IMG/VR virus record: IMGVR_UViG_2671180963_000003 | Reading direction: 5' to 3' (one strand) | Source: a virus | Lineage: Duplodnaviria > Heunggongvirae > Uroviricota > Caudoviricetes | DNA length: 35,090 nt | Part shown: one piece after another, positions 565 to 33,440 of the stretch | How the letters are laid out: every line of letters starts with the position of its first letter | How positions within the stretch are numbered: position 1 is the stretch's first letter | Translations under genes and position numbers: made by a program | The notes under the pieces: generated by a model | Told to the model about the DNA's origin: nothing | What the model saw: the letters and a program-made list of their open reading frames with translations, nothing else | The model's database searches: none

Positions 565-639
565 GGCTTTAAAGAATAATGTAGCATTATGTTCATTATA
601 ACCTCATCTTTGTTGTGCAAACCTAACCTAAACTTACTA

Positions 640-663
640 GGGACTCTTCGGAGTCCCTTTTTT
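640..663 (+). terminator. rho-independent terminator (7 bp stem, UUCG tetraloop, T6)
   Basis: GGGACTC-ttcg-GAGTCCC followed by TTTTTT; lies 7 nt from the 3' end of the minus-strand gene 670..1011, so it may act in both directions. Confidence 0.55.
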
Positions 664-669
664 ATTGTC

Positions 670-1011: not shown

Positions 1012-1037
1012 AGTAGGGTCTCCAATTAAATTAAAAA

Positions 1038-2000: not shown

Positions 2001-2044
2001 TATAAATACTCCTGTGGAAAGTTAGTTTTAATTGTTCATTTCAA

Positions 2045-2082
2045 GCCTCCCTTGTTGCAGCAAAGGAGGCTTTTTCTTTTTT
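2045..2082 (+). terminator. hairpin followed by T-run (terminator-like, plus-strand polarity)
   Basis: GCCTCC...GGAGGC imperfect long hairpin followed by TTTTTCTTTTTT; it sits in the 5' leader region of the minus-strand 320 aa gene, so its role is ambiguous. Confidence 0.3.
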
Positions 2083-2114
2083 AAAGCCATCATATAATTC
2101 TCAGTGAAAGTGGA

Positions 2115-2294
2115 TTAACAAACTTGAACGTTAATCTTTACCTGAATTTCGTATTTCTTCATTAGCTTGTAGAATCCGCTTCTATCAATTCCTTCCTTCT
2201 TAAAGAAGTTTTCCCCGCCTCGCTCAGTGTCGCTGTAAAAGCGTTTAGCAATATCAACAATCATTTCACGAGTGAACTTAACAGGTCTAGCCAT
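2115..2294 (-). CDS. small HTH DNA-binding protein (paralog of 5690..5917)
   Basis: ATG at 2294 with GAGGA 9 nt upstream; the ORF track began at an upstream GTG. Motif RPVKF...DIAKRFY...GIDRSGFYKLMKKY aligns with the 76 aa protein RPARF...DIAYAYY...GISIAQFYKNMKKL. Confidence 0.5.
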   Translation of the reverse strand: MARPVKFTREMIVDIAKRFYSDTERGGENFFKKEGIDRSGFYKLMKKYEIQVKINVQVC

Positions 2295-2395
2295 CAGTCG
2301 ATTCCTCACATGTGGATTAATAATTTCTTAAAAAGAGCATTTCGCTCTGAACACTTGTATTTATAAAATGATTTTCAGAAAACCCTGTAAAACCA

Positions 2396-2411
2396 CTGTA
2401 TATCCGATCAG
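2396..2411. promoter_or_regulatory. LexA (SOS) box-like site CTGT-N8-TCAG
   Basis: CTGTATATCCGATCAG; matches the CTGT-N8-ACAG consensus with one mismatch; abuts a candidate leftward promoter. Confidence 0.35.
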
Positions 2412-2480
2412 TGGGAGCACGAATTGCTAAAGAGAAGATTAATTATTAATCAATTCGTACAATATTCAACCGAAAAAGCA

Positions 2481-2496
2481 CTGTATATCTAACCAG
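2481..2496. promoter_or_regulatory. LexA (SOS) box-like site CTGT-N8-CCAG
   Basis: CTGTATATCTAACCAG; the first 12 nt are nearly identical to the site at 2396. Confidence 0.35.
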
Positions 2497-2498
2497 TG

Positions 2499-2514
2499 CT
2501 GTATGAATTAGCAG
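2499..2514. promoter_or_regulatory. LexA box-like site CTGT-N8-GCAG
   Basis: CTGTATGAATTAGCAG, immediately adjacent to the previous site. Confidence 0.25.
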
Positions 2515-2635
2515 TGAATCAGGAGATTTTCAGAAGTGAACAATCATTTCACACATGTATTTATAACGTGGAAATTCTTGCTTATCATCTATATGGGGAC
2601 TGTTTAGAAAATTTCAACCCCCACCAGTGAGAAAA

Positions 2636-2664
2636 AGTATAAAATAATCCTTGACAGTTGTCAA
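2636..2664 (-). promoter_or_regulatory. sigma70-like leftward promoter (TTGACA-17-TATACT)
   Basis: On the minus strand, TTGACA (2664..2659), a 17 nt spacer, TATACT (2641..2636); the -35 is one half of the palindrome TTGACAgtTGTCAA (2651..2664). Confidence 0.5.
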
Positions 2665-2859
2665 TACACTTGACCCAAGCGAGAAATGACTATCAAAATT
2701 TTTGTTTGAAAATGGTAGATCAGGATTATCAACCTTTATAACCTATTATAGCACGGAGACCTTTTGACAATTCTTTTTAAATCATTAACTTACGCCACTT
2801 TTTGGTGATTTTTTGATTAAATAATATACAAGAATTTTCTATCAAAATATTTGATGGGA

Positions 2860-3056
2860 ATTGCCCCTGAAATTCTGAATTTTTGCCCCCGAATAAAATC
2901 CCCAAGATTCTACTATCCCATTTTTGCCCCTGAAACCTACTATTTTTGCCCCTGAAATTCTGGGAAACAGTGATTTTGCCCCTCATTTTTGCCCCTGAAA
3001 TGCCAATAATTGCCCCTGAAAATCTAATTTTTGCCCCTGAAATTTGCCCCCGAAAA
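2860..3056 (+). repeat. array of about 9 direct repeats of TTGCCCCTGAAA (variants TTGCCCCCGAA) plus one inverted copy near 3100
   Basis: Copies start near 2860, 2883, 2924, 2946, 2977 (truncated), 2988, 3010, 3031 and 3045; GGGGCAAAA in inverted orientation at about 3100; an AT-rich segment precedes the array at 2800-2858. Confidence 0.8.
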
Positions 3057-3459
3057 GGATTGGTGAGAAAAACTCTTTATAAAACATTAAATTAGTGAGG
3101 GGCAAAAGCGGGTGATGCGGCGTACATAGATATTATATAACACATTCGCTACGCTCATGTGTAAAACTAAAAACAACAAATAACCAGAAAGATATTAGGA
3201 GGGCTTTAGCCCGACTGCGCGAAGCGCCAACCAATTGCTTCTAGTAACAACTAATTTAAACTAGATGATACTAGATGGTCTTAGAAGGAATTAACTAGTT
3301 TGCTCGCTCGCTTCGCTCACTCTCAAACGTCTGCGACGCCACTGCGTGGCATCGAGAATCACTTCTGAAAGGATTTTCTCGAAAGGGATTTTAAACTAGT
3401 TACTAACTGATTCTAGAAAGATAGTAATAATCACTTTAATGATCATGAAAGGTATTGGT

Positions 3460-3488
3460 ATCCCTTCGGGATTGCAACCTTCGGTTGC
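3460..3488 (+). other. two tandem short hairpins with CTTCG loops (possible RNA structure or weak terminators)
   Basis: ATCCcttcgGGAT and GCAACcttcgGTTGC in tandem, followed by a T-rich tract. Confidence 0.3.
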
Positions 3489-3686
3489 TAAATTGCTTCC
3501 TGATTATTATTTCTCCAAAAGAAAGATTCTTATATTCTAAAGATACTTCTTCGTTTTGACGATGATTTAATCAAAAATCATGAAGGAGGCGAAGCCGACT
3601 GAATCCAATCACCTTTCATAATAACAAGAATTTTCTCTTTATAAATAATATTAGATTGATTCACTTTCTTTTTAGAGGATACCACT

Positions 3687-4127
3687 ATGATCAATACTAA
3701 AACTCCTTTCGTACTTCTGGGTCTGGACTCTGAAAACTACGGCAACTTCCATATGCTAGAAGTTTTCGCTAATCGTGGTTATAACATCATTCGTCATTCC
3801 GAAGACTCCAACTACTCAACTGCTTTCTACGCTTTAAAACGAAATGGTCGTCCTACTGTGATCATCGACTGTCTTACTGATGAAGGTCGTCTTCAATACA
3901 ACGATATTCCAGCAATTATTGTTCGTGATGACCTGCCGTTTGATGTTCGTGAATACGACGTTGATTTAGGCTCTTACTATGGGATCGCCGATCTTGACCA
4001 GATTATGGCTGATTACGGTAAAGAAACCGCTCAGGAAGCCCCGGAAGATGACGAAGACTACGCTCCAATCTGTTTCTCTTCTCAGAATGGCTTCTACGGT
4101 TACGATGAAGGCTTAGATATGCTGTAA
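3687..4127 (+). CDS. strongly acidic early protein, function unknown (possible DNA-mimic/anti-restriction candidate)
   Basis: 146 aa ORF, AGAGGA Shine-Dalgarno; about 27 Asp/Glu versus about 10 Lys/Arg; first rightward gene after the large control region. Confidence 0.55.
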   Translation: MINTKTPFVLLGLDSENYGNFHMLEVFANRGYNIIRHSEDSNYSTAFYALKRNGRPTVIIDCLTDEGRLQYNDIPAIIVRDDLPFDVREYDVDLGSYYGIADLDQIMADYGKETAQEAPEDDEDYAPICFSSQNGFYGYDEGLDML

Positions 4128-4149
4128 GTTAGGTCAACCCTTTGGCATC

Positions 4150-4169
4150 TTGTCAAGGGGTATTGACAA
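4150..4169. promoter_or_regulatory. palindromic operator-like site TTGTCAA-N6-TTGACAA overlapping a promoter -35
   Basis: Perfect 7 bp inverted repeat with a 6 bp spacer; its right half-site is the -35 of the promoter at 4163-4191. Confidence 0.4.
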
Positions 4170-4191
4170 AATTTTATGACTTTTTTATGAT
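4163..4191 (+). promoter_or_regulatory. sigma70-like rightward promoter (TTGACA-17-TATGAT)
   Basis: TTGACA at 4163-4168, 17 nt spacer, TATGAT at 4186-4191; further TTGACA/TTGACC motifs at 4200 and 4217 suggest tandem promoters. Confidence 0.5.
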
Positions 4192-4247
4192 TATCGCACT
4201 TGACAACTTTGAACCTATTTGACCTAGATTTGTAAAGAGAATGTAAC

Positions 4248-4397
4248 ATGAAAGAATTTACCATCACTAAATCCCTGTATGACTGGACTGTTAAAATCTC
4301 CGGCAAAACCGTTTCTGTAACCCCTAGCCATGTAGAAAATGATTGGGTGTATCCCGTGAAACTATCTCCCGTAGTATGCATGTTCCGTTTGATCTGA
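4248..4397 (+). CDS. small ORF (49 aa), hypothetical
   Basis: ATG at 4248 downstream of the promoter; weak Shine-Dalgarno; absent from the ORF track because of its size; overlaps the next ORF by 22 nt in another frame. Confidence 0.25.
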   Translation: MKEFTITKSLYDWTVKISGKTVSVTPSHVENDWVYPVKLSPVVCMFRLI

Positions 4398-4579
4398 TGT
4401 CCTTAACTGGTATTCATGCAATGCTGGAAGTTCGCGAGCAATTCGAAGCTGGTAATCACAATGCAACTCCAGTTAGCAATCACCTTCTTACTAATGAAGA
4501 ACGTGAAATCATCGAAAACTGGCGTTATGAATATGCGATTCCTTATTATGAAGAAGACCAAGTAGAAATCGATTGGTAA
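4376..4579 (+). CDS. small acidic protein, hypothetical
   Basis: ATG at 4376 in the frame of the 4343..4579 track ORF (which starts at a TTG); no clear Shine-Dalgarno, so it may be translationally coupled or frameshifted to the preceding small ORF. Confidence 0.35.
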   Translation: MHVPFDLMSLTGIHAMLEVREQFEAGNHNATPVSNHLLTNEEREIIENWRYEYAIPYYEEDQVEIDW

Positions 4580-4668
4580 TAAATTTCTATTATAAATAAA
4601 ATTGTTCCGGTGGTGATGCCGGAACTAGGAGGACCAAATCATTAAACCGTTTAAGGGGAATTTTTACT

Positions 4669-5496
4669 ATGAATACTGTTACCGTTATGAATACTGCTAA
4701 AACTGCTTCCGTGTCTCTGGTTGTTGATAACACCAAACCGCTGACCATGTCTTCTCGTCAGATCGCTGAATTTGTTGATAAGCGCCATGATAACGTTGTT
4801 CGCGATATTCGTAAGATGCTGAACGAGTTAGAAAAAGATGTCCTCAAATTTGAGGGCATCTATCTTGACCAATATGGACGCGAGAAAATCGAATATCACT
4901 TAGACGAAGAAATGACTCTGACTCTTGTCACTGGTTACGATGTTAAGCGTCGAATGATCGTTATTCAGGAATGGAAGCGACTGAAAGAAGAAAATGAAAA
5001 ACTGCGTTCTCAGCAAATCAACCCTTACGCAAACATGACTAAGCTCGACTGGATTCGTGAGGCAATGGAATTGGAAGCCGCAAACGAACAACTGATTCAA
5101 GAAAAGAAACAACTGGTTGAATTGCATGTTCGTAAAGCTATCGACACACACAGTCTTAGCCGCTTATTAGGCGAAAAACGAGGCTCTACGACGGTACAAA
5201 TGATTCTGAAAGGTTTATGTGCTGCTGGTGTTCTTGAGCGTCGTCTGGATGCTTCTGGTAAGCCTAAAGGCTATGATCTGCTTCCTCCTGGCTATATGTT
5301 CGCTCGTATGTCGGCACACGGTCAGATCGAGTTCACTGCTGATGCTATCCCGCATCTCGTAAAACTCGGATTGCTTGAAGAAGAAAAGGCCGCAACTTTG
5401 AAATTGCCACAGCCGAACAACTCACGAGCAATCATTAATAACACTGCTTTGCTGATTCGTCAGAATGCTGGCTCTCTGGAAGTCTTCGGACTGTAA
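4669..5496 (+). CDS. Rha-family phage regulatory protein (antirepressor-like)
   Basis: N-terminal motif LTMSSRQIAEFVDKRHDNVVRDIRKM resembles the Rha domain signature as recalled from memory; 275 aa; AAGGGG Shine-Dalgarno. Confidence 0.6.
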   Translation: MNTVTVMNTAKTASVSLVVDNTKPLTMSSRQIAEFVDKRHDNVVRDIRKMLNELEKDVLKFEGIYLDQYGREKIEYHLDEEMTLTLVTGYDVKRRMIVIQEWKRLKEENEKLRSQQINPYANMTKLDWIREAMELEAANEQLIQEKKQLVELHVRKAIDTHSLSRLLGEKRGSTTVQMILKGLCAAGVLERRLDASGKPKGYDLLPPGYMFARMSAHGQIEFTADAIPHLVKLGLLEEEKAATLKLPQPNNSRAIINNTALLIRQNAGSLEVFGL

Positions 5497-5504
5497 TAAT
5501 TTTT

Positions 5505-5529
5505 GCCCCTGAATTTCAGGGGCTTTTTT
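5505..5529 (+). terminator. rho-independent terminator built from the repeat motif
   Basis: GCCCCTG-aattt-CAGGGGC followed by TTTTTT immediately after the Rha-like gene; the stem contains the same GCCCCTGAA motif as the repeat array. Confidence 0.7.
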
Positions 5530-5689
5530 GTATCTGTAGATGCGCTGAACTTTAAGCGCATCCCTCCAGATTTGGATGCATCTATAGATCAGTCCAGATT
5601 TGGACTCAACTTAGAGATGAGCGCAGTTTTGCGCCGATTGTTTTACATACAAAAAAGCCACTCCGAAGAGTGGCAAAGAGAATCAAAAC

Positions 5690-5917
5690 TCAAAAACCTG
5701 TTGCTTCTACGATCTGACCATCACCGATCTGAACATAGAATTTAATGTCTAACTTCTTCATATTCTTATAGAATTGGGCGATTGAGATCCCATGTTCACT
5801 AAGAATCTGTTCTTTCGCTTCCTTACCACGATCCGCTGTATAATAAGCGTAGGCAATATCAGCCATTTGTTCAGCGTTAAAACGGGCAGGGCGACCGCGA
5901 GTAGCTTTAGTAGTCAT
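5690..5917 (-). CDS. small HTH DNA-binding protein (paralog of 2115..2294)
   Basis: Likely start ATG at 5917 (GGAG 9 nt upstream) rather than the track's GTG at 5950; ends with a Hin/resolvase-like HTH, GISIAQFYKNMKKL. Confidence 0.5.
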   Translation of the reverse strand: MTTKATRGRPARFNAEQMADIAYAYYTADRGKEAKEQILSEHGISIAQFYKNMKKLDIKFYVQIGDGQIVEATGF

Positions 5918-5952
5918 AGTCATTTTCTCCAAATTAAAGTGAATGTTCACCT

Positions 5953-6555
5953 TTATTTAGAGGACTTACATTTTATCGGAAAAAGTTCTCCATCGTCAAC
6001 CGACATAAAGAACTCTGCCTTAATCCCGTACTTCTTCAACCGTGAATAGTATGTACCCCGACTAATATCAACCTTGCGAAGCACTTCAAAGAACCCTTTA
6101 GGATCGTTGTAATAGTGGCTATAACGCACGTTAGCGAGTTCAACGAATAGTTCCCTTGTATCACCATAGCCTTTCTTGAAAGCCTCGTTACGATAGCGTG
6201 TAATTGCGTGATTCAATCTCTTCTGTTTCAACACTTCTCGGATCGGCTTCCACTGCAACCGATAGATAGGACCGTCATCAATGCGATAATAACGCTTGAT
6301 ATCAAAATCAAACCAATCTCGGACTCTCCGAAACTCTGTATGCGATGTTCTATGCTTCTTAAAGAAGTTGTGAACGTCTGTATAACCATTATCACGGTAA
6401 AATTCTATTAAAATCTCTTTCGCTTCCTCACGGCTAAAACCGGATGTTGTGTAATCAGTCTTTAAGTGCTTATGTTTTACTGGCAAACGATATTCATGAT
6501 CGGTACAAGACAAGGCTAATTCTAATTCATCTCTTTGTTGCTGATTAATTAGCAT
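5953..6555 (-). CDS. basic protein with HTH-like segments, function unknown
   Basis: 200 aa, AAGGGGG Shine-Dalgarno; C-terminal [16 protein letters not shown] resembles the HTH of the two small paralogs; antisense to the flanking Rha-like and terminase genes. Confidence 0.55.
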
Positions 6556-6642
6556 ACAACCCCCTTAAATCTTAATACCCGTATTTATCAAAAAATCAAC
6601 AATTTAATAAATACCTTCATATTTCGTAATGAGGGTAATTAC

Positions 6643-8550
6643 ATGAAACTAATTTCTAATAAGGCCAAATTAAAAAAGATTCTCAAAAATGCAGCCAAAT
6701 ATATTACGCCACCGCCTAAACTCCTTCCATCGGAATGGTGCGAAGCTAATATGGTGCTGGTAGATGGTCCTCAAGCTGGGGATAAAGTTAAATTGCTGTC
6801 ATTCCAGAAAGGTATGATTGATGCTCCTTTCCTTGAGAACAAGAAAAAGTATGTTCTGATGACCAGTGCGCAGATCGGAAAGACTACCATCTTGAACGGC
6901 ATCCTGTTTAACCAGATGGCTAACGATCCATGCAATATGATTATCGGACAATCAACCGCTAAAGAAATGTCTCAATATCTCGCTGGTAAGATCCGACCGT
7001 CTATCGAAGCATGTGATGCATTAAAAGACGTGGTTACAGACAAGAATGATCGCAATGCGGTTAACAACAATAACCAGCTACAGCTAAAAACGAATCACTT
7101 CCTGTACATGGTATCGCTAACCAGTCCATCGACCCTGCGCGGTAAGACTGCAAAGGTCGGACTACTAGACGAAATCGATGCTGCTACAGCCTCAGAAGAA
7201 GGTGATCCGGTGGCACTGGCTGCTAACCGTTTAACTACCTTTGGCGACGAAGGCCGATTAGTCGTATCCAGTACCCCGACCAGTAAGCTGGGAAGCATTA
7301 ACCAGCAATGGTTATCAAGCGATATGCGTATGTTTTTTGTTCCGTGTCCTCATTGCGGGGAACACCAGGTGATCGAGTGGGAAAACGTTCAATTTGAATG
7401 GCGTAACATCGATGGTAAGAACTTACCCGATCCTGATACCGCTCGTTATATTTGCCCCCACTGTAAGAACGCATGGACAGAAGGAGAGCGGATCAGGGCG
7501 GTGGCTGCTGGTGAATGGCGAGTAACCCGTGAAAGTGAAGTAGCCGGATTCTGGATCAGCCGTCTGTATTCACCATTCAGCACGATCCGCGCTTGTGTGG
7601 TTGATTTTAGTCATGCGTGGCAATCCTTTGATCTACAATCATTTTATAACACCGTGTTAGGCAAGGTATACGACGATCAGGACACGGCAGTAGAAGCAAA
7701 TGAACTGGAACAACTCAAAACAGATGTTTCTATCGAGAATATCCCTGATGACGTGATTTTCTTGTGTTCAGGAATTGACCAGCAATTGGACCGCGCAGAA
7801 TCTACCATCTTAGGTGTAGCGAAAGATAAGGTTTACATTCTGGATCACCGCAGCTTTTACGATCATAACTGTGAACGATATGAATCACCTGTTTGGGATC
7901 GCCTGGTTAACTTCAAGAAAACCAAATTCTATAACGTTAATGGTGAACGTGTACCAATGCTCGCCAGCTTCCTTGATACATCGAACGGTCGATTCACTCA
8001 AGCCGGATACCGTATTTGCGGCAAGTGGAAGAATCTACACGCGATCAAAGGTAGTTCATCTGGTAATGCTCCAGTGATTCCGGTTAAACCTACCCGCACA
8101 GGTGGTCATGAATTGCTTATGCTGGGTGTTAACGTTGGTAAATCCGCTGTTCGTGAAATGCTGGTTAGAAACCTGAAAGATAATCCTCATATTGGCTTAG
8201 AAATATCAGAAACCGTTCCTGATGATTATCTCGATCAGCTTTTGAGTGAATCCATCAAGCGTACTACTACTGGCGTGCGTTGGGTGAAAAATCCAGGTAG
8301 TACCCGAAACGAGGCTCTCGACTGTCTGGTTTATAGCTATGCTGCTTCTCGCTACGTTCTTTCAAAAATGTCATGGGATAAACTCATTGCAATGAAAGAC
8401 AGCTTAAACCGTGTTGTCGAAGAATCCGTAGAAGCTCCTAAATCGCAATCTGACGAGCAAATAGAAGAAACTAAGCCAATCACACGACCACAACGTCAAA
8501 ACATCGCCAGACGTCCAAATAGAGGCCGTAGCTGGGTAACATCGTTCTAA
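6643..8550 (+). CDS. terminase large subunit (lambda GpA-like)
   Basis: 635 aa; Walker A-like SAQIGKTT near residue 75; paired Cys motif CPHCG...CPHCKNAW typical of GpA-type terminases; sits at the head of the morphogenesis module; GAGGG Shine-Dalgarno. Confidence 0.8.
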
Positions 8551-8556
8551 TAACTC

Positions 8557-8576
8557 GCCGTCCTTCGGGGCGGCTT
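8557..8576 (+). terminator. UUCG-tetraloop hairpin (weak terminator or RNA-stabilising element)
   Basis: GCCGTCC-ttcg-GGGCGGC with one G-U pair; only a short T tract follows. Confidence 0.35.
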
Positions 8577-8622
8577 ACTCCTAAATATTGTTAATCCAAT
8601 AACAATTAAATAAGGGGTAATT

Positions 8623-9117
8623 ATGAGTTTAGAACTAATTCCCTTAGTAATTCGTAAAGGCGAAAAAATCACGCTGGCGAATGAAGAGGGTGTGACAATT
8701 CAGGTAGGAAATAGTAAAGGTATCATTTATCAGGTTGATGATTCTCCGGCTAATCATGAGATTAAAACCTTAGATTTTGCCGAAGGTAAATATACCATCG
8801 TAATAACTTTGGAAGAAGAACTGGTATCAATGCAGGAATTAACTGTATTGCCAGTATTCGCCAAACAATCCAAAAAAGAATATCTGCGGGAAACTATCGC
8901 CTTAATCGAGCAAGTTATTTTCGCCCGTTTATCTGGGGACGAAGCCGCATTATCTCAAATGACCGTGAAAGGGAATACTTTCGCCTATGAGTCATTGGGT
9001 GTTCTCCAGGCTCTAAAAGTCGATTATGAACGTCAGTTATCAAAATTAATTCAAGCCGAACGACGTAAACAGGGAATTAGCCCGATTAAAAATATTAAAG
9101 TACGTCTTACGCGATAA
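8623..9117 (+). CDS. head-tail joining protein candidate (gpW-like C-terminal region with N-terminal extension)
   Basis: Lies between the terminase and portal genes as gpW does in lambda; the C-terminal segment NTFAYESLGVLQALKVDYERQL loosely resembles the gpW pattern from memory; AAGGGGTAA Shine-Dalgarno context. Confidence 0.4.
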   Translation: MSLELIPLVIRKGEKITLANEEGVTIQVGNSKGIIYQVDDSPANHEIKTLDFAEGKYTIVITLEEELVSMQELTVLPVFAKQSKKEYLRETIALIEQVIFARLSGDEAALSQMTVKGNTFAYESLGVLQALKVDYERQLSKLIQAERRKQGISPIKNIKVRLTR

Positions 9118-9127
9118 GGGGTAAATC

Positions 9128-10639
9128 ATGTTTAATCTTTTTCGACGCAATAAGGCGGTAGAGACTCCAGTTAAAACTAATCACCGCCAGCAACAACAAA
9201 AAATCTTTATCGACAAACAAGTAGAAAAATTCCAGAAAGATTTGTCTAAGCGTTCTTTGGGCTTGGTCGGTGATCGCATTGATGGATCGCTTCAACAAGA
9301 TACCATTACAGGAACCTTCAATAAGGCTCTCAAATCGAACGGTAAGCGCCTTTATGATCAGGGTCGTACTCTGGCCTTAAACACTTCCGTAGGCAGTCGC
9401 TACACGCAATACATAACCGATATGGTGGTAGGTACTGGCCTAGATCCGAAGCCGTCAGTTGTTAAATCAAACGGCAAACTTGATAGCGCACTGAATAAGC
9501 AGATCGAGAATGCTTTCTGGAAGTGGGCGCAGAATGCTAAACGCTTCTCTCGTAACGGTCGCTTTAACTTCCGTGAACTGCTGGTAATGGCTGAACGTGA
9601 GCGCGTTATGGGTGGTGAGTGCTTCATTGTTTTAACCAAAGAAAACAATGAGTTAAATGTTTCTATCCTGTCTGCTGATAAGTGCGACTGGACACTCAAC
9701 CGTGAAGTAAGCAAAGAACGCGCTATCTATCAAGGTGTGGAGTATGACGTGGACACAATGCGCCCTGTTGCATACTGGTTTCGTAAAGTCAATCTACTGA
9801 CTCAGACCTACACTGGTGATAACTATCGTGTCGATGCTTCGCAAGTATGCCATTATTATCAACCACTTGCGGCTGAATCTCTGCGTGGTGTGACTGACTT
9901 CCTACCAGTGATTAAGGATATCGCACATCAAGACGCATTCCGCGAAACTGCGATCATCCAGAAACGCATTGCAGCTAGCTCTATGGGCTTTATCGAACGT
10001 CCGAAAGATTCTGGTGACGATTTTGATACTGGTGAAGAGGATGAACAATATCAAGCGCCGGAAGTAGTACAGGATTTTGCACCGGGTACTATTCAGGAAT
10101 TGCCGGAAGGGGCAACGATCAAGAGCATCCAGGCGACGCAAAGCGGTGATGACTTCAATTCCTTTAACGATGCGATGTTTACTAGCGTATCAATGGGCTT
10201 AGGCGTGTTTAAACAGGGCTTGACTGGTGACACTAGCCAAATAAATTACTCATCAGCACGCTACGGCGAATTACTTCAACGCACACGCATTAAAGCACTG
10301 CAAAACAAATTAATTGAAACAGTGGTATTGCCAATTTTTGAAGCGTATCTACGCCATTATTCCGCGCGTGGTATTGTTCCGATTCGTATTACTGCAATTC
10401 CGCATATTATCGACAACACTACTATTATTCGTCCGCGTTTTGAATCCGTCGATCCTATTAAAGACGTAAACGCCGAGATTGCTTTAATTGATAAAGGACT
10501 TAAATCACGTACTGCCGTTATATTAGAACGTGGTGATGATCCTGAAAAAGTATTCTCAGAGATTCAAGCCGAAAAGAGCGCACTAAATATTATCGTTGAT
10601 GGCGAGGGTGAAGAAAAAAATTCCCCAGCCGATCCCTAA
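9128..10639 (+). CDS. portal protein (by position and size)
   Basis: 503 aa ORF immediately after the terminase/gpW-like genes and before the protease-capsid gene; AAGGGGTAA Shine-Dalgarno; no motif-level confirmation. Confidence 0.6.
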   Translation: MFNLFRRNKAVETPVKTNHRQQQQKIFIDKQVEKFQKDLSKRSLGLVGDRIDGSLQQDTITGTFNKALKSNGKRLYDQGRTLALNTSVGSRYTQYITDMVVGTGLDPKPSVVKSNGKLDSALNKQIENAFWKWAQNAKRFSRNGRFNFRELLVMAERERVMGGECFIVLTKENNELNVSILSADKCDWTLNREVSKERAIYQGVEYDVDTMRPVAYWFRKVNLLTQTYTGDNYRVDASQVCHYYQPLAAESLRGVTDFLPVIKDIAHQDAFRETAIIQKRIAASSMGFIERPKDSGDDFDTGEEDEQYQAPEVVQDFAPGTIQELPEGATIKSIQATQSGDDFNSFNDAMFTSVSMGLGVFKQGLTGDTSQINYSSARYGELLQRTRIKALQNKLIETVVLPIFEAYLRHYSARGIVPIRITAIPHIIDNTTIIRPRFESVDPIKDVNAEIALIDKGLKSRTAVILERGDDPEKVFSEIQAEKSALNIIVDGEGEEKNSPADP

Positions 10640-10684
10640 TAACCAACGGGGGCGCAATGCCCCCAATTAATTAAAGGTGATTAA

Positions 10685-12688
10685 ATGCTTAAATTTCGCC
10701 GCGAACTTAACGGTTACGGTGGAGTTATTAACGAAGGGCATAACGATCAATACGAATTTGAAATTGCTTTCTCCAGTGAACAGCCGTATCAGCGCCAATT
10801 CTGGGATGAGCAAAATCAAGAAATGGTGGTATTAGATGAAATTCTGGTACATACACCGGAAGCGGTTGATCTGTCTCGTCTGAATAATAACGCTCCGTTG
10901 CTGTTCAATCATAATTTCGATAATCATTTAGGTGTCGTTTGTAACGCTCGAATCGATGCGGATAAAGTAGGCCGTGCGACCGTTAGATTCTCTAAGCATG
11001 GCACTTTGGCTAATGATATTCGTAATAAAGTCATTGAAGGTACGATGGAAAAAATTTCTGTCGGCTATGACATTAAAGAATATCACATCGATTATGCCAA
11101 AGGACAATTGATTGTTACTAAGTTTGTTCCTTTCGAATTAAGTTTTGTTACGGTCCCGGCGGACGATTCGGTCGGTTTAAATCGCTCTCTAAATACTATC
11201 ACAGTTAATTTGGAGGCTAAACGCGATATGACTAAAGAACAAATCGAAGAAATCAAAGAAGAACAAGAATCCGCTCAGGTTGAAGAAACTCCGGTAGAAG
11301 AAAATAAAGAATCGGAAGTTGAAGAAACTCAAGAGCGCCAAGTTGAAGAGAATGAAGAAAATGAAAATCTCGAAGACGGAAAAGACGCTGAACATCCTGA
11401 AAGTGTTGATGATGATAGTTCAACTGTTCGGGAAACAGAAGAAGTAAAAGAAGAACGTGAAGCCGCTCCGGTTGAAGAAGAAAAAATCGAAGAAGTGGCT
11501 GAACGTTCCGAAGAAGACGAATTAGAAATTCGCGAAATTGCACGCGAACTAAATATTGACGACGAAGAATTAAAACGCGCATTGGCAGTTAAAGATATGA
11601 CGCCGGAAGCATTCCGCACTAAGGCACTAAATAATCTCGTCAATGCTCAACGTAATAACGAACAAATTAATAAGGAACAAATCATGGAAAAAACTTTTGA
11701 CCTGAACAACGTAATTCGCTCTCTGGTAGATGGTGAAGCTCTGGGTGCTAACGAAGCCGAGTTTTCTGCAATGGCTGCTACTGCAACTATGCAGCGTGGT
11801 CGTGCTGCTCGCGGTGGCTCTGTATTCGTTCCGACTGCTGCTATGCGTGCTGCTGCTGATGGTAACACCAAAGCTACTCTGACCGCTGTAACCGACGAAA
11901 AACTGCTGAATGATTCCTATGTAGCGATGCTGTTGCCGGAATCCGTTCTGGGTCGTCTTGGTGTGAAAGTCCTGTCTGGTCTGACTTCTCCGACTGCTAT
12001 TCCGAAAATGACCGCTTCCAGCGTTGAATCTTTCGGCTTCGTTGATGAAAACGGTGCTGCACCGGAAGGTAAAGCTGAATTTGCAAACGTGAAAATGGCT
12101 CCGAAAACTTTTGCTGGTGGCAACCCGATCAGCCGTCAGTCTCTGAAAACCGTTCCGGGCATCGCTACCCTGATCACTGATCACATTAACCAAGCTGTTC
12201 GTGTCAAACTGGAACAACTGATTCTGTCTGATAAAGAAAATGCTCGTGGTCCGGCTGGTGTGATTAAGCAACTGGTTGATGCAAGCCGTGTTGAGAAGAA
12301 AGCTGCTTTCTCTTACAAAGACTTCCTGAAAGAAATTGCTAAACTGACCGACGCTGGCGTTCCTGCTCAGGCGATCAAGTTTGCGATGAGCGGTGCAACT
12401 GCTGCTGAACTGGAATCTACCCTGAAAGATAACGGTGTTTCCGGTTATATCATCGAAAACGGTAAACTGGCTGGTTACGACGTAGTTACTTCTGGTGTTA
12501 TTCCGGTAGACCACATCGTTCTGGGTGACTTCTCCGCTATTACCATCGGTGAATGGGGCGGTCTGGAACTGGACATTGACGACACTACCTACCGCGCACA
12601 GTCCGCAATTGTTCCGCGTATCTGGGTAGATCTGGATTATGTAGTTACCCAGCCGGAAGCTCTGAAAGTTCTTCACGTCTCTGAATGA
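10685..12688 (+). CDS. prohead protease - acidic linker - major capsid protein fusion (HK97-like)
   Basis: N-terminal ~170 aa carries LLFNHNFDNHLG and KISVGYD, resembling the prohead protease (S78) His and Ser motifs; residues ~190-300 are an E/K-rich low-complexity linker (scaffold/delta-like); the C-terminal ~350 aa has composition and length expected of an HK97-fold capsid protein. Confidence 0.7.
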   Translation: MLKFRRELNGYGGVINEGHNDQYEFEIAFSSEQPYQRQFWDEQNQEMVVLDEILVHTPEAVDLSRLNNNAPLLFNHNFDNHLGVVCNARIDADKVGRATVRFSKHGTLANDIRNKVIEGTMEKISVGYDIKEYHIDYAKGQLIVTKFVPFELSFVTVPADDSVGLNRSLNTITVNLEAKRDMTKEQIEEIKEEQESAQVEETPVEENKESEVEETQERQVEENEENENLEDGKDAEHPESVDDDSSTVRETEEVKEEREAAPVEEEKIEEVAERSEEDELEIREIARELNIDDEELKRALAVKDMTPEAFRTKALNNLVNAQRNNEQINKEQIMEKTFDLNNVIRSLVDGEALGANEAEFSAMAATATMQRGRAARGGSVFVPTAAMRAAADGNTKATLTAVTDEKLLNDSYVAMLLPESVLGRLGVKVLSGLTSPTAIPKMTASSVESFGFVDENGAAPEGKAEFANVKMAPKTFAGGNPISRQSLKTVPGIATLITDHINQAVRVKLEQLILSDKENARGPAGVIKQLVDASRVEKKAAFSYKDFLKEIAKLTDAGVPAQAIKFAMSGATAAELESTLKDNGVSGYIIENGKLAGYDVVTSGVIPVDHIVLGDFSAITIGEWGGLELDIDDTTYRAQSAIVPRIWVDLDYVVTQPEALKVLHVSE

Positions 12689-12825
12689 ACTAACGTAGAA
12701 CCTTCTGAACCTTCCCCCGATTTGGGGGAAGAAAATCTGATTCCATCTCAGGAAGAAGAAGTTCAAGAGGTTACGGCGAAAGCCACAGTTAAAAAAGAAC
12801 GTAAGACTAAAGCAAAATAATAATT

Positions 12826-12852
12826 AGCCCTGCCTAACGGTGGGGCTTTTTT
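12826..12852 (+). terminator. rho-independent terminator after the capsid gene
   Basis: 9 bp stem AGCCCTGCC/GGTGGGGCT (two G-U pairs), TAAC loop, TTTTTT. Confidence 0.6.
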
Positions 12853-12882
12853 GTATGTAAATACTCCATAAAGGGGGTAACT

Positions 12883-13173
12883 ATGTTCAAATTATCAGAA
12901 TCACAATTATCAAGAATGTTTAAGAGTGCTCCTGTATTTTCGGTGGAAGGTGGTAAATCAATTCGTGCTTATCATGAAATTACTACTACCGACGAACAAG
13001 GGGTAATTACAGAATCAGAATTTCTATTTTGTCGTGAGGGAGACTTAAATCAGGGTGATGTTGTCATTGTAGACGGTGAACGCTTCAAAGTTCAATACGT
13101 TAAGCGCAATGGTGATAATACTTCTGATTGCTTTATTGCTCGTGCAGGGGGTACACATGCTCGCTACCGTTAA
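12883..13173 (+). CDS. head-tail connector/head completion candidate
   Basis: 96 aa ORF, AAGGGGGTAA Shine-Dalgarno, directly downstream of the capsid gene; assignment by position only. Confidence 0.4.
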   Translation: MFKLSESQLSRMFKSAPVFSVEGGKSIRAYHEITTTDEQGVITESEFLFCREGDLNQGDVVIVDGERFKVQYVKRNGDNTSDCFIARAGGTHARYR

Positions 13174-13579
13174 TAATATGCCTAGACTGAAAATCAAACG
13201 CGCCTTGCAGGATATTATCGAACAAGATTTAGGTCTGGCTTTAAACGTAGAACAAACTCAGCAAGGCTTTAGTGATGACGTGGTTTGTTGGATTACTGGA
13301 ATGAATGAGACTTACACTAGGGTCCGTGGTGGTAATGCAATGCAAGCTGAATGCGTTATCGAAATGCAGTTGTATTCTCAGAATCATGAAACCAAAATTC
13401 ATGAGGGTATTTGCCAGATAATCCAGATTCAGCCGGATAACCCACGTTTTAAAGATTTGGGCTTCTCTATTTCAGATATCACTCCAGTAGCCTCTAATAC
13501 CGATTATGACGATGATTCTAGTGATGGGGGTATCGTTGGGACACTTAGCCTTAAATTTTCTTATGTAGCGCGTTTTTAA
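13157..13579 (+). CDS. neck/tail completion candidate
   Basis: Start moved to the ATG at 13157 (AGGGGG Shine-Dalgarno 6 nt upstream), overlapping the previous gene by 17 nt; 140 aa; assignment by position only. Confidence 0.4.
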   Translation: MLATVNNMPRLKIKRALQDIIEQDLGLALNVEQTQQGFSDDVVCWITGMNETYTRVRGGNAMQAECVIEMQLYSQNHETKIHEGICQIIQIQPDNPRFKDLGFSISDITPVASNTDYDDDSSDGGIVGTLSLKFSYVARF

Positions 13580-13588
13580 GGGGTAATA

Positions 13589-14422
13589 ATGAATATTACA
13601 CAAGATAACTTAGACATTTTCACGGGGTCGCATGTTGAAGTCTCCGTGTCTACTATGGTGGATAACCAGCCGGACTTTTTCGATCCTGCATTTAGTCCTA
13701 TCGAGAACATCGCAGCATTCCCTACGATCACCGAATCCACAGAGATCCAGACGTTAGAAGAATATAACCATGATGTTACTGGTAAGTTGGCTGGCTATCG
13801 TAAACTTGAATCAACAACACTCACAGTAAACCGTGTTCTGGATGATGAACATCAAGCAATGTTGATGAAAGCGGTAGAGGATAAAACCCCTTTACGCTTC
13901 CGTATGTTCTATGTTGTGAACTCTGGCTATAGTGCTGCTAACACAGGATACTACGTCATTTTTGATGCATACGTCACATCACACAAAACCCGTGGTAGCG
14001 ATAACAAAGTTACTACCATCGAATTTAAATTAGATCCTGATGGTGGGATTCTCGACCGTGGTATTGCCACCGAAGGCCGGATCTTACGTCAAGGTGATTT
14101 TGGTTTGGGCGCTGGTGTACATCCATTCACAGGTCCGATTGATAGCGAAGCATTAGCCGGAAACCGTTTCGTAACTTATCAGGGATCGAGCGTATCTAAT
14201 CCATTTAGTGCTGATACTTCACTAATTCACGTTCAACCTAATGAAGATGGTGGATGGCAATTAACTTGCACCGCTTCCGGCGCACCACGTTTACGAGTTC
14301 GCACAGTCCAGAAAGACGGTAATTCTGGATGGGTGAAAGTGTATTCCACAGAAGAAAAACCGACACCAGCCGAGATTGAAGCCGTTTCTATCCATGACCG
14401 GATCGACTTCGGGGAATACTGA
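13589..14422 (+). CDS. structural protein of unknown role sharing a motif with the tail fibre
   Basis: 277 aa, AAGGGGTAA Shine-Dalgarno; C-terminal EEKPTPAEIEAVS parallels GDKPTPAEIGAYS in the tail fibre around residue 368. Confidence 0.45.
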   Translation: MNITQDNLDIFTGSHVEVSVSTMVDNQPDFFDPAFSPIENIAAFPTITESTEIQTLEEYNHDVTGKLAGYRKLESTTLTVNRVLDDEHQAMLMKAVEDKTPLRFRMFYVVNSGYSAANTGYYVIFDAYVTSHKTRGSDNKVTTIEFKLDPDGGILDRGIATEGRILRQGDFGLGAGVHPFTGPIDSEALAGNRFVTYQGSSVSNPFSADTSLIHVQPNEDGGWQLTCTASGAPRLRVRTVQKDGNSGWVKVYSTEEKPTPAEIEAVSIHDRIDFGEY

Positions 14423-14495: not shown

Positions 14496-17400
14496 ATGCA
14501 GTCGATCCAATTTAAACGAACAAATGTTTCTGGCAAAAAACCAACGCCGGAACAATTACAGGTCGGTGAGGTAGCAATCAACCTTAAAGACCATGTTATT
14601 TTTACCAAAGACCGAGATCATGAAGTAGTTCAAATCTCTGTTTCTCCTGAAACTCACGCGGCACTAGAATCTAAAGTTGATGCTAACAAACAAGAACTGG
14701 ATAGTACAATTGCAGTAAATGACCGCAATATTCACGCTAAAGTAGATGAAATTAAACAAACTACTGATGCAACCATCGCAGCAAATCACGTAGAAATTAA
14801 CAATAAAGTTGATGTAATTAAACGCGAAACCGACGCGACAATCGATGCCAATAAAAATAAAGCTGCTTCCGACCTTGCTGGTGTTAAAGCTGAATTGTCG
14901 GATACTATCAACGCTAATAAAAATGCGGCTGCTGTAGCAACACAGGAACTGGACACCCGCATCAATAAAAAAGTTGATGATATTAAATCCCGTACCGATG
15001 CAACCATCGCAAGCAATGACAAAGCAATCAATGACAAGGTTGATTTGATTAAGGCCGAGACTGATCGGACTATCGCAGCAAATAAAGCCTATGCGGAAAA
15101 TCAGTTAACTGACACCTACAATAACCTTACTGGTGTGATTGCAGCCAATAAGCAAGAGGCAGCGGATAACGTCGCAGCATTAACCCGTGATGTTGAAGCC
15201 AAAAATTCAGCAATTCATAGCAAAGTTGACAATAACAAGTCTTACACCGATTCCGAACTTGCACGTTTAGAAAGCCGTATTGATGCAGCCGATGGATCTA
15301 GTGACGGTAAGTACATCAAAAAACACGTAAACACTTATACTGATGGTTATTTGCTGTCTAAGACCGCAAACTATTTTGATGATCCAGGTGCTCGTAATCT
15401 TGATTACTTTGGTGCATTCCGTACCAATGATCTAGCTGATCATATTGCAATGATCTTGCATGTTCCGCACCCATCCGGTGTTAATCATGCTCGTGGTTTT
15501 GAGTTCACTTATGGGTCTAATCCACATGCTACGGTAAGAACATACGGCTATGATGAATTGGGTCATTTGGCATATTCTCACCGCATGTATCATGAAGGTG
15601 ATAAACCTACTCCTGCCGAAATTGGCGCATATTCGAAAGCAGAAATTGACCGACTGTTCCAGAAGACGCTTAATTTTGGTATCGAGGGTGGTTGGTTTAA
15701 ACTAGGCACTTTGACAATGCCACAACAACACGGTCGCACCGCTAAGATTCGTTTGGTTGGTGGTAACGGTTATAACGTCGGACAGAATGGACAAGCCAAT
15801 GTTATTGAACTGGTGATCCGTTGCGGCAACAATAGCCCGAAAGGTGTTGTATTCAATGCTTATTATAGCATTTGGTATTACGAACAATATTTTTGCGCAA
15901 TTCCTACCGATGGCGATAATTACGATCTTTACGCTTACTACGGTGCACATACAGGATTTGTTTTAGCAGAATATCAAGTTTCGTCCGGTGGTGTTTCTTT
16001 AAACCTGTTGGATACTCCTGAATATCTGGGTGGTGAAAAACCTGTTGCAGATGAAATTTTTGATGCTCTTAACATTTCATCATTCAATAACTTTAGCAAC
16101 CGTGGAACGTTAAATTTTGGTGGAAACCATCAAGGCCAATATGACATTGAGCATTTGAACGAACAACAAACAAATGCTAAGAAAAAGTTGCGTCGCTTCC
16201 GTAGTTCCGCACCCGCTACTATCTGGCATGAAACTGTAGATGATCAGAATTATCGTCTTGCTACTGGATACGATGATGTAAACCAACAATTATTGCTGTC
16301 GGCTGCATCCGGTTTGCATATTCGTAGAATGACCATTGATGGCGGTTTAGGTGGAAACTCAGCAATTGATTTTCGTCGTGGTCCAAATGAATCATGTCAT
16401 TTAAACTTCTTTGATTATCGCACTGGTACAGATGTTCGTAATGGCTGGTTTGGCTTCGGTGATGGTCAGACCAAAGATTTTATTTGGTGGAACGACAACG
16501 GTCAAAACTCTATAAACCTGATTGAAGACGGTGAATTACATATTACTGGCGGTAGAGGCCAGAAAATTGTAATGAATAGCGAAGTGGCATTATCTGAAAA
16601 TGCTCGTTTGGCTGTCAAAGGTGGTAACTATGGTTTAATCCTTCGTAATGATGGTTCTAGCTTCCATATTCTTACTACCGATTTAAAAGATTCCTTTGGG
16701 ACGTGGAACACTCGTAGACCATTTAGTTATGATTTCGCCGAAGGTGGATTAGATCTAGGTGGCACAGCTACCGCACGCTGTTTACATCTGGGAATTGATG
16801 GTAGCACCCGCATCGAAGATAATATGGTGTTTAGATCAGGGTCTCGTCAGTCAATGGACTATATTGAATTAATCCATTGGGGTAACAGTAATACAGGACG
16901 CAATAACGTTTTGAGTATGCGAGATTCCAAAGGTTTCTTGGCTGAATTTGAACGCGTGGGGGGTACTAACGGCGTTAAAACCAGATTCTTTGGCGAAACA
17001 TTCACTGATGGTACATTATACCTAAATCAGATGAATAATAGCTCTGAACGATTCTCTATTAATAATTGGGGAAATTCAGAAGTTGGTCGCGCGGCAGTAA
17101 TGGAAGTTGGCGATTCCAAAGGTTATCACTTCTATACTGAACGTAGGACAGATGACACCGTTTTATTTGATGTATCTGGTGCTTTGACCGTGCATGGACC
17201 TAACGGAATAACCGTCAAAAACTCAACTGGTGCACGCCATATCTGGTTTAGAGATGATAGCGATACGGAAAAGGCTGTTATCTGGGCTACAGATGAGGGT
17301 ATTTTACATATTCGCAATAACCACGGTGGACAATTTACACATCACTTCCAGGGCGCGATGATTAAACTGGAAGGGCGTGTTCCTTATGCCGCAGATCAAG

Positions 17401-18020
17401 GACTTATCCGTGGTGAGGTTTCTGGTGGTGCATATGTTGCATGGAGAGACCGACCTGCTGGTTTGTTGGTTGACTGTCAACAAAGCGTTGATAGTGCTCA
17501 TGCTATTTGGAAAGCGGTTGATTGGGGGCGTAACTACATCGCTGCTATGGACGTTCATTGTCCCGGTGATAGTAATAATACTGCGGCAGCGGTTCTTCAT
17601 GTTCAGGGTGCTGATTATCAATTCCATGCAAGTGGAGAATTTCATGCCACTGGTAACGGAAACTTTAACGATGTTTATATTCGTTCCGATCGTCGTCTGA
17701 AAATTAATGTTGAAGATTACGAAGAAAATGCGGTGGATAAGGTAAATAAACTCAAAGTTAAAACCTACGATAAAGTTAAATCTCTTAATGACCGAGAAGT
17801 TATAGGTCATGAGATTGGTATTATCGCACAGGATTTACAAGAGGTATTACCGGAAGCTGTTAAAACCGCAAAAATTGGTGGTTTTGATAACCCAGAAGAA
17901 ATTTTAACAATTTCAAACTCCGCAGTGAACGCGCTTTTAATTAAAGCGGTCCAAGAAATGAGCGAAGAAAATAAACTTCTTCGTGAACGTCTTGCTGCAA
18001 TTGAAGCTAAATTAGGGTAA
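14496..18020 (+). CDS. tail fibre with C-terminal intramolecular chaperone (S74-like) domain
   Basis: 1174 aa. N-terminus MQSIQFKRTNVSGKKPTPEQLQVGEVAINLKDHVIFTKD resembles the T4 gp37-type fibre N-terminus from memory; repeated KVDxIKxxTDATIxAN units; WGNSEVGRAAVMEVGDSKGYHFYTERR resembles a T-even fibre domain; C-terminal DRRLKINVEDYEE...IAQDLQEVLPEAV...coiled coil resembles the self-cleaving chaperone of endosialidase/T5 pb1-type fibres. Confidence 0.8.
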   Translation: MQSIQFKRTNVSGKKPTPEQLQVGEVAINLKDHVIFTKDRDHEVVQISVSPETHAALESKVDANKQELDSTIAVNDRNIHAKVDEIKQTTDATIAANHVEINNKVDVIKRETDATIDANKNKAASDLAGVKAELSDTINANKNAAAVATQELDTRINKKVDDIKSRTDATIASNDKAINDKVDLIKAETDRTIAANKAYAENQLTDTYNNLTGVIAANKQEAADNVAALTRDVEAKNSAIHSKVDNNKSYTDSELARLESRIDAADGSSDGKYIKKHVNTYTDGYLLSKTANYFDDPGARNLDYFGAFRTNDLADHIAMILHVPHPSGVNHARGFEFTYGSNPHATVRTYGYDELGHLAYSHRMYHEGDKPTPAEIGAYSKAEIDRLFQKTLNFGIEGGWFKLGTLTMPQQHGRTAKIRLVGGNGYNVGQNGQANVIELVIRCGNNSPKGVVFNAYYSIWYYEQYFCAIPTDGDNYDLYAYYGAHTGFVLAEYQVSSGGVSLNLLDTPEYLGGEKPVADEIFDALNISSFNNFSNRGTLNFGGNHQGQYDIEHLNEQQTNAKKKLRRFRSSAPATIWHETVDDQNYRLATGYDDVNQQLLLSAASGLHIRRMTIDGGLGGNSAIDFRRGPNESCHLNFFDYRTGTDVRNGWFGFGDGQTKDFIWWNDNGQNSINLIEDGELHITGGRGQKIVMNSEVALSENARLAVKGGNYGLILRNDGSSFHILTTDLKDSFGTWNTRRPFSYDFAEGGLDLGGTATARCLHLGIDGSTRIEDNMVFRSGSRQSMDYIELIHWGNSNTGRNNVLSMRDSKGFLAEFERVGGTNGVKTRFFGETFTDGTLYLNQMNNSSERFSINNWGNSEVGRAAVMEVGDSKGYHFYTERRTDDTVLFDVSGALTVHGPNGITVKNSTGARHIWFRDDSDTEKAVIWATDEGILHIRNNHGGQFTHHFQGAMIKLEGRVPYAADQGLIRGEVSGGAYVAWRDRPAGLLVDCQQSVDSAHAIWKAVDWGRNYIAAMDVHCPGDSNNTAAAVLHVQGADYQFHASGEFHATGNGNFNDVYIRSDRRLKINVEDYEENAVDKVNKLKVKTYDKVKSLNDREVIGHEIGIIAQDLQEVLPEAVKTAKIGGFDNPEEILTISNSAVNALLIKAVQEMSEENKLLRERLAAIEAKLG
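14676..15080 (+). repeat. imperfect tandem ~66-69 bp repeats within the fibre gene
   Basis: At least four consecutive units encoding (H/N/K/D)KVD(E/V/D/L)IK(Q/R/S/A)(T/E)TD(A/R)TI(A/D)(A/S)N; a coding repeat, not a separate element. Confidence 0.6.
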
Positions 18021-19019: not shown

Positions 19020-19490
19020 ATGACTACTAAATTTGATATTTTTTCTGGTGGCCTCGTTGGTCTGTTTCTGCATGAAGAAGTAACTAACACCGATCTTGAC
19101 AGTGAAAGCTATCTGGAAATTCCAGAATGTGCGGCTTTCCCGGAAACTGGTGTAGAACGTTCTACTGTCGATGTTCCTAACTTCGGTGGTCCGTATAACC
19201 GTAAGCTGGTTGGTCGTATGTCTGTACCGGATATCGAACTTTCGATCAACTACATGCCGGGTAACGAAGTACACGAAAAACTGATTAAAGCAACCGAAGA
19301 CGGTAAGCGCGTACAGATTAAAATTGCTTACTACATCGACGCTACGAAAAAATCTGGTGTACATATCGCTTATAACGGCTTCCTGTCTAAAACTACCATG
19401 ACTGGTGGTGAGGATGCTGTAGTAGGCCGTACCTTCACCTTTGTAGTAGATGGTGCTCCGGTTAAACAAGCTGTTTTCCAGAAACTCTAA
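19020..19490 (+). CDS. major tail tube protein
   Basis: 156 aa; immediately upstream of the chaperone pair and tape measure gene; followed by a strong terminator; AGAAGG Shine-Dalgarno. Confidence 0.65.
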   Translation: MTTKFDIFSGGLVGLFLHEEVTNTDLDSESYLEIPECAAFPETGVERSTVDVPNFGGPYNRKLVGRMSVPDIELSINYMPGNEVHEKLIKATEDGKRVQIKIAYYIDATKKSGVHIAYNGFLSKTTMTGGEDAVVGRTFTFVVDGAPVKQAVFQKL

Positions 19491-33428: not shown

Positions 33429-33440
33429 ACCATTTCCAAA

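Follow-up and report, generated by a model that had tools for sequence, protein, structure and literature searches.

We analysed a fused head gene in a 35,090-nucleotide (nt) stretch of viral DNA, IMG/VR record IMGVR_UViG_2671180963_000003, hereafter called the window. The gene is an open reading frame (ORF) at 10685..12688 on the plus strand, which starts with ATG and encodes a protease-scaffold-capsid precursor of 667 amino acids (aa) and 73.6 kDa. It encodes the head shell of a siphovirus-type Escherichia coli prophage of roughly 33 kb, sits after the portal in the head module and is the sole capsid gene detected in the element; the genes upstream of it are, in this order, those of the large terminase (6643-8550; gpA type), of a head-tail joining protein like gpW (8623-9117) and of the portal (9128-10639; lambda family). 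A first-pass annotation made from the letters of the DNA had proposed a single gene for protease, linker and capsid, with no separate scaffold or capsid gene, and both proposals held: the ORF spans exactly 10685-12688 with the Pfam families Peptidase_S78 and Phage_capsid in one frame, and a scan with Pfam and PHROG of the 27 ORFs of at least 90 aa, on either strand and not inside another coding ORF, revealed no further gene for a capsid, scaffold or protease protein. One of the complete E. coli genomes has an allelic prophage beside hicB/yncJ with a 96% identical gene; the RefSeq annotation of this prophage lists one 'phage major capsid protein', and no protease, second capsid or scaffold gene is annotated there. 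The features of the fused gene are the following.

10674..10687, plus strand: Shine-Dalgarno (SD) sequence AAGGTGA (10674-10680) and ATG at 10685, start of the full-length product, anti-SD duplex energy -9.2 kcal/mol
10748..11188 (aa 22-168), plus strand: prohead serine protease of the Peptidase_S78/assemblin fold (Pfam, alignment, model)
11212..11230, plus strand: candidate internal ribosome-binding site and start, with GGAGG (11212-11216) 11 nt upstream of an ATG in the same frame (11228-11230, Met182)
11237..11539 (aa 185-285), plus strand: hyper-acidic linker, predicted to be disordered (composition, alignment, model confidence)
11510..11878 (aa 276-398), plus strand: helical segment resembling a scaffold or delta domain (secondary structure of the model, conserved columns)
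11879..12688 (aa 399-667), plus strand: HK97-fold major capsid domain with the stop codon (Pfam, PDB match, Foldseek)

Looking at the region past the protease domain, we found a candidate start within the frame itself. Translation from Met182 is predicted to give an inner product, aa 182-667, of 486 aa and 53.0 kDa, which comprises the linker, the scaffold segment and the capsid domain and leaves out the protease; it would begin with MTKEQIEEIK, the codon just before being that of Asp181. Despite its location in the variable linker past the protease, Met182 is invariant in alignments of 37 and of 66 homologues whose identity to the window protein is only 25-28%. The conserved Met and an SD past the protease domain are shared by gp6 of Dinoroseobacter phage vB_DshS-R4C (R4C; PDB 8gta) and the other PHROG 617 relatives: the arrangement is GGAGG-5nt-ATG in R4C, GAGGA-6nt-ATG in phiHAP-1 and AAGGA-7nt-ATG in Escherichia phage DCP80. 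In R4C gp6 the equivalent residue is Met189, from which the sequence reads MSDPIQNPAPATPNPAPQATR.

For the comparison, 80 further IMG/VR loci were added and all sequences were reduced to 28 lineages with less than 60% identity. We scored an SD when its duplex energy was at most -5 kcal/mol and an in-frame ATG lay inside the 28 codons past the protease domain. Such a pair was present in 24 of the 28 lineages and in 41 of 505 equal-sized control windows of the same genes (8%), a difference for which Fisher's test gives p = 2e-20, a value that overstates independence because the compared lineages are related. The distance from the SD core to the start codon is the canonical 6-7 nt in 21 of 27 lineages. 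The residues encoded by the SD are unrelated from one lineage to another (LEA, KE, SED, RG, EE, TEV, QG and PE), meaning that the constraint acts on the nucleotides and not on the amino acids. In one lineage (L023) the aligned codon is GTG (Val), and it has an SD of its own. A distant actinophage fusion, gp5 of Microbacterium phage Anseraureola (cluster EE), also has its strongest internal SD-ATG right past the S78 protease domain, at the same boundary. Its capsid part is assigned, by a weak match, to a different Pfam family (Phage_capsid_4); the protein is shorter (528 aa), it has no long acidic insert and its host is Gram-positive.

The same constraint is visible at closer range. In the window, GGAGG is written with two rarely used codons, TTG (6 of 51 Leu codons) and GAG (6 of 81 Glu codons). 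Eight E. coli alleles vary at 41.5% of third positions overall, and the stretch 11170-11244 (about 75 nt) is almost invariant among them; the sole change in the SD is GGAGG to GGGGG (Glu to Gly), in which G-U wobble should preserve the pairing. Two E. coli alleles, L086 and L087, have no Met at the aligned position, and GGAG-8nt-GTG lies two codons away. We had considered them as a counter-example and dropped them as such, since an SD and a GTG sit nearby. Their protease module has been swapped: it is 48% identical while the remaining protein is 84-90% identical, and the recombination joint falls at the internal-start boundary. This module, which lies before the internal start, is exchanged among the alleles as one unit. 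A further start at Met334 (ATG 11684-11686, with AAGGA 7 nt upstream) was not adopted, as it is absent from the wider family; in the E. coli alleles its SD-ATG is retained at the nucleotide level even where the encoded residues differ.

Taken together, the conservation of the SD and start in 24 of the 28 lineages, the canonical spacing and the GTG swaps indicate that the gene is probably nested, with a second scaffold-capsid protein of 486 aa (53 kDa) made from Met182, and that a single-gene, single-product account is probably incomplete. The internal start of such fused genes was not described in the literature that we searched. Several points weigh against a nested gene, the relatedness of the compared lineages being one of them. 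The SD-ATG spacing of 11 nt in the window and its E. coli clade is at the long end of the range used by E. coli ribosomes, whereas it is 6-7 nt in most relatives and 5-7 nt in those of the R4C type; the predicted accessibility of the mRNA at the internal site is ordinary (42nd percentile of gene positions) and thus gives no support to the internal start; one marine clade has the ATG and lacks an SD-like sequence; and the internal signal could be a conserved relic of the start of an ancestral separate capsid gene. Moreover, the duplex energies of the two SDs are alike (-9.2 kcal/mol for the main start and -9.3 for the internal one), so the ratio of the two products is not predictable.

In the strongest alternative there is a single product, every subunit of the shell is the full 667-aa chain with its own protease and the GGAGG-ATG is an unused relic. 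The reading frame is continuous, the main start has an equally good SD, the internal spacing is suboptimal, accessibility is not raised at the internal site, and both annotators and the literature describe one fusion protein. However, a relic would neither keep a spacing of 6-7 nt nor survive at about 25% protein identity, and it would not swap ATG for GTG with the SD retained or fix wobble positions. The geometry of the shell is a further difficulty: with 415 subunits (T=7, as in R4C; PMC10276861), each bearing an extension of about 45 kDa, the procapsid would on a rough estimate be very crowded. We therefore regard a single product as rather unlikely, and continue with the two-product gene as the preferred reading.

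Judged from its sequence, the N-terminal domain is a genuine prohead protease of the S78 family, with the catalytic residues in place. Pfam Peptidase_S78 (PF04586) matches aa 40-162 with E 1.6e-10 and 41.8 bits, and aa 1-181 scanned alone score 44.8 bits, against a cut-off of 21. Both protease motifs pointed out by the first-pass annotation were found in the protein (LLFNHNFDNHLG, aa 72-83; KISVGYD, aa 123-129), and they hold the putative catalytic residues: His65 and Ser114 of HK97 gp4 (by our own count), which we take to be the catalytic pair of the HK97 literature, align with His76 (LLFNHN; codon 10910-10912) and Ser125 (KISVGY; codon 11057-11059). His76, Ser125 and Glu151 are unchanged in all 85 homologues and His56 in 82 of them. 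The predicted structure of the domain is a confident assemblin-fold model, the fold of T4 gp21 and of the herpesvirus proteases. One might still suppose that the domain is degenerate and inactive and serves as extra scaffold only, with processing left to the host or to another enzyme, as in Staphylococcus phage 80-alpha, where a host protease does the processing. The invariance of the His and Ser aligned with those of HK97 gp4, and of Glu151, in 85 of 85 homologues, a Pfam score above the gathering threshold and the confident assemblin-fold model all argue against this, and we consider it very improbable.

The C-terminal part, taken by the first-pass annotation for a capsid domain, was identified as such by profile and by fold. 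Pfam Phage_capsid (PF05065) matches aa 410-663 with E 2.7e-24 and 86.5-90.7 bits against a cut-off of 24.2, and the match persists when pieces of the protein are scanned separately. AlphaFold2 gives a confident HK97-like domain from about residue 409, for which Foldseek returns the R4C capsid 8gta (E 3e-18), followed by the HK97, D3, gene transfer agent and T5 capsids (E about 1e-12) and by that of SaPI1; the sequence match to 8gta_A has E 4.5e-24. The R4C gene product counts 629 aa, and the virion chain 8gta_A consists of 268 aa that are exactly residues 362-629, which means that the mature protein lacks the N-terminal part. The residue numbering in the structure paper agrees with 362-629, and the R4C shell is described there as T=7, without cross-links or decoration proteins (PMC10276861). 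The virion chain is thus what would be expected of proteolytic processing. As R4C Gly362 aligns with Leu399, the mature capsid protein of the prophage is predicted by this homology to begin near Leu399, give or take 15 residues, and to have about 269 aa and 28.6 kDa, and by the same homology it would lack the protease and scaffold part. Two points count against this prediction: the cleavage position is taken from where a single deposited cryo-EM chain begins, and cleavage is not discussed in the R4C structure paper (PMC10276861). Neither a protease domain nor cleavage of a capsid precursor is mentioned in the R4C structure paper or in the marine phage proteomics papers.

Between the two domains, the first-pass annotation had noted a segment of extreme Glu and Lys content. 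This description needs correction, since the segment is acidic: the 101 aa from 185 to 285 contain 46 Asp and Glu and 10 Lys and Arg, with an isoelectric point of 4.05. It is predicted to be disordered, the per-residue confidence score of AlphaFold2 (pLDDT) staying below 50 over residues 158-272. The alignment shows that an acidic insert of about 90 residues is largely specific to the E. coli clade and DCP80, because the linker is much shorter in the other clades; it contains only short, imperfect tandem DNA repeats. We can only speculate that the insert is a space-filler, or a charge element that helps the scaffold to leave as DNA enters. The scaffold-like segment that follows (aa 276-398) has helices at 276-288, 293-301 and 307-335 in the AlphaFold2 model and conserved columns at L340, A355, E357, R376, G377 and P383; the stretch conserved in the family ends with GGSVFVP (aa 377-383). 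This segment is presumed to be removed during maturation. Scanned alone, the linker and scaffold segment gave chance-level Pfam matches only.

The first-pass annotation had called the fused layout uncommon, which is not the case: the fused protease-scaffold-capsid architecture is already known and widespread, and the gene belongs to a known family. Residues 21-665 match positions 24-623 of the 626 of phrog_617 ('major head protein') with E 2.4e-88, and phrog_4523, 'major head and protease protein', is matched with E 1.2e-38. A HMMER scan of 1.84 billion representatives returned 366 clusters (50% identity) at E<=1e-30, and among the best 150 of these almost all proteins have 560-700 aa with both halves matched. 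A tblastn search recovered the two-part match from 79 phage isolates, among them R4C, phiHAP-1, RcCronus, Persinger, the FoX phages and Murka, whose gene is annotated as 'major capsid protein and protease'. At the DNA level, the fused gene showed no similarity to isolated phages. R4C gp6 and the other PHROG 617 members have the same three-part single frame, and the relatives (R4C, phiHAP-1 ORF5, RcCronus, Persinger/FoX-type, KIRK) are 27-30% identical to the prophage protein over the whole length; the E. coli clade of the prophage, together with DCP80, differs from the R4C type in its additional hyper-acidic disordered insert of about 90 residues. Fusion of an S78 protease upstream of the capsid protein has been called common in small-genome siphoviruses (PMC9671004), and Francisella phage KIRK encodes a 600-aa 'Peptidase_S78, Phage_capsid' protein, Fhv_0017, beside a lambda-type portal and a gpW homologue (PMC7924643). 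Papers on the Mesyanzhinovviridae, CBASS, XM1, MSTV1 and Pyrovirus had no bearing on the fusion. The cassette made of TerL(gpA), the gpW-like gene, the portal and the fused gene has the same order in R4C, phiHAP-1, DCP80 and KIRK.

Finally, the idea that the fusion is an artefact joining adjacent genes through a sequencing or assembly error or a pseudogene-type frameshift, conceivable in that the HK97 protease and capsid genes are adjacent and 2 nt apart so that a small error could fuse such genes, is already refuted by the breadth of independent sequences, as the same frame of 665-670 aa recurs in more than 120 independent E. coli/Shigella protein clusters and is found in 44 complete genomes, 80 viral contigs and isolated phages, and as the PHROG is built on the full-length architecture.

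Two records of the family deserve a comment of their own. Escherichia phage DCP80 (L003; PQ671644.1) is classified as a 141-kb T4-like Straboviridae genome, and its positions 1-13765 carry the cassette of lambda-type terminase, gpW-like gene, portal and fused gene, the capsid product being 44% identical to the window protein; the record is probably a chimeric assembly with an induced prophage. In phiHAP-1 (L004; NC_010342, 3842-4004), the annotated start of the 602-aa 'major head protein' appears to be about 54 codons too short, because near-identical database proteins have 656 aa and the frame is open upstream.

HK97 offers the closest comparison with a system of separate genes. Its gp4 belongs to the protease family of the fused gene, and the catalytic His and Ser of the two align; its gp5 has the capsid fold of the fused gene, and the scaffold role lies there in a cleaved N-terminal extension, the delta domain, as proposed here for the fused gene. 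The proposed inner product, aa 182-667, would be the direct counterpart of gp5. However, gp4 and gp5 are separate genes, with a stop codon and 2 nt between them, whereas the prophage has one frame; the N-terminal extension of the capsid protein is about 217 aa in the prophage and 103 aa in HK97; and the last 60 or so residues of gp4 form a C-terminal tail to which nothing in the prophage protein corresponds. This tail reportedly targets the protease to the delta domain. Since the protease is covalently linked to the capsid chain, such a targeting tail would be unnecessary in the fused system. The HK97 shell itself is cross-linked by Lys-Asn isopeptide bonds, whereas the R4C relative was reported to be without cross-links (PMC10276861).

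Nested genes for a protease and a scaffold are themselves established, as in lambda C/Nu3, UL26/UL26.5 of herpes simplex virus type 1 and gp17/gp17.5 of the Haloferax virus HFTV1 (bioRxiv 10.64898/2026.09.13.751334). In genes of the C/Nu3 type, an internal start past the protease yields an abundant protease-free assembly protein with a common C-terminus (bioRxiv 10.64898/2026.09.13.751334). The prophage gene likewise has an in-frame start with a ribosome-binding site past the protease domain. In lambda C/Nu3, UL26/UL26.5 and HFTV1, however, the shared C-terminal part is scaffold only and the capsid gene is separate, whereas the inner frame of the prophage runs through the capsid domain to the stop at 12688, so that scaffold and capsid are not separate. 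Because the shared part includes the capsid protein, the prophage gene, if really nested, would be a variant of the C/Nu3 type rather than a member of it. The lambda protease belongs to a family different from S78.

The surroundings of the gene contain two further elements, given here with their coordinates.

10647..10665, plus strand: hairpin with a perfect GC stem, GGGGGC-GCAAT-GCCCCC (found by reading the sequence and by a terminator scan)
12826..12857, plus strand: intrinsic terminator, a 9-bp stem with 6 GC pairs followed by TTTTTTGTATG, about 140 nt past the capsid gene

The hairpin lies inside the 45 nt that separate the capsid gene from the stop codon of the portal gene (10637-10639), is not followed by a run of T on the plus strand and shows no change across eight E. 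coli alleles; a role in RNA processing, in RNA stability or in attenuation is conceivable. The terminator is strong and suggests that the head-shell message is kept separate from the head-completion and tail genes that lie downstream. In HK97, too, there is a terminator after the capsid gene, a putative one being annotated at the equivalent position, after gp5.

The families found among the scanned ORFs were tail tube, chaperone, tape measure, distal tail, tail tip, tail fibre, endolysin, anti-repressor/Rha protein and serine recombinase; the remaining ORFs had no match. Of 5426 complete E. coli genomes, 49 carry the prophage element. Its identity with an Stx2 phage was considered and rejected, as the paper on Sp5 morphogenesis deals with a P22/N4-type capsid and no protease. 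No small terminase was recognisable in the window; directly upstream of the gpA-type terminase (region 5500-6643), the ORF at 5953-6555 runs on the opposite strand and matches no PHROG. The early/regulatory region of the prophage is very small, so the element may be defective or helper-dependent.

The tail-fibre gene (14496-18020, 1174 aa) sits between the head-completion and the tail genes. Its C-terminal part of about 500 aa matches the distal subunit of T4-type long tail fibres (phrog_1699), with 77-92% nucleotide identity to T4-like phages, and it is the only gene with such a match. This suggests that a temperate siphovirus and virulent myoviruses have exchanged sequence recently. The ORF preceding it (13589-14422, 277 aa) has a tail-tube-like N-terminal half, the real tube gene being at 19020-19490. 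Some alleles have extra genes in the structural operon: L086 carries a 340-aa ORF between portal and capsid (1851-2873) and a GIY-YIG nuclease before the tail fibre (6823-7860), and another allele, L001, has a NUMOD3-domain gene within the tail module (33352-34122). These genes look like insertions of the homing-endonuclease type.

We propose the following scheme for assembly. The gene would give two in-frame chains, a 73.6-kDa protease-linker-scaffold-capsid protein and a 53.0-kDa linker-scaffold-capsid protein resembling HK97 gp5 with its delta domain. The two would co-assemble through their common capsid domain into a procapsid formed around the portal, with the extensions facing inward, and the protease would be carried by only a subset of the shell subunits, as in lambda C/Nu3 or herpesvirus UL26/UL26.5. 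Once assembled, the tethered protease would remove all that precedes residue 399 or so, the protease itself and the acidic scaffold included; the fragments would exit, and the capsid protein of about 29 kDa would stay behind and expand upon DNA packaging. The whole fused family may well consist of nested two-product genes of this kind, with a bulk of protease-free delta-domain-capsid protein and a minority of full-length protease carriers. It would span hundreds of lineages of Proteobacteria and perhaps, independently, Actinobacteria.

The fusion itself is not new, and what the present work adds is the comparative evidence for a nested internal start. As the fusion is ordinary, such genes should be annotated as 'prohead protease / major capsid protein fusion' and not, as in RefSeq, as plain 'major capsid protein'. 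A shell of 415 protease-bearing subunits is hard to square with the known assembly of HK97-type capsids, and an internal start is a simple answer to this problem of stoichiometry. If this is true, annotation pipelines overlook a second product in hundreds of phage lineages, and the capsid protein delivers its own protease through a fusion that only some of the subunits carry. Protease encapsidation would then have a third route, beside the free protease with a targeting tail of HK97 and the protease-scaffold fusion of lambda, the herpesviruses and T1-like phages. It would also bear on the evolution of the protease, scaffold and capsid modules, and on the engineering of HK97-fold cages with a defined number of tethered cargo proteins.

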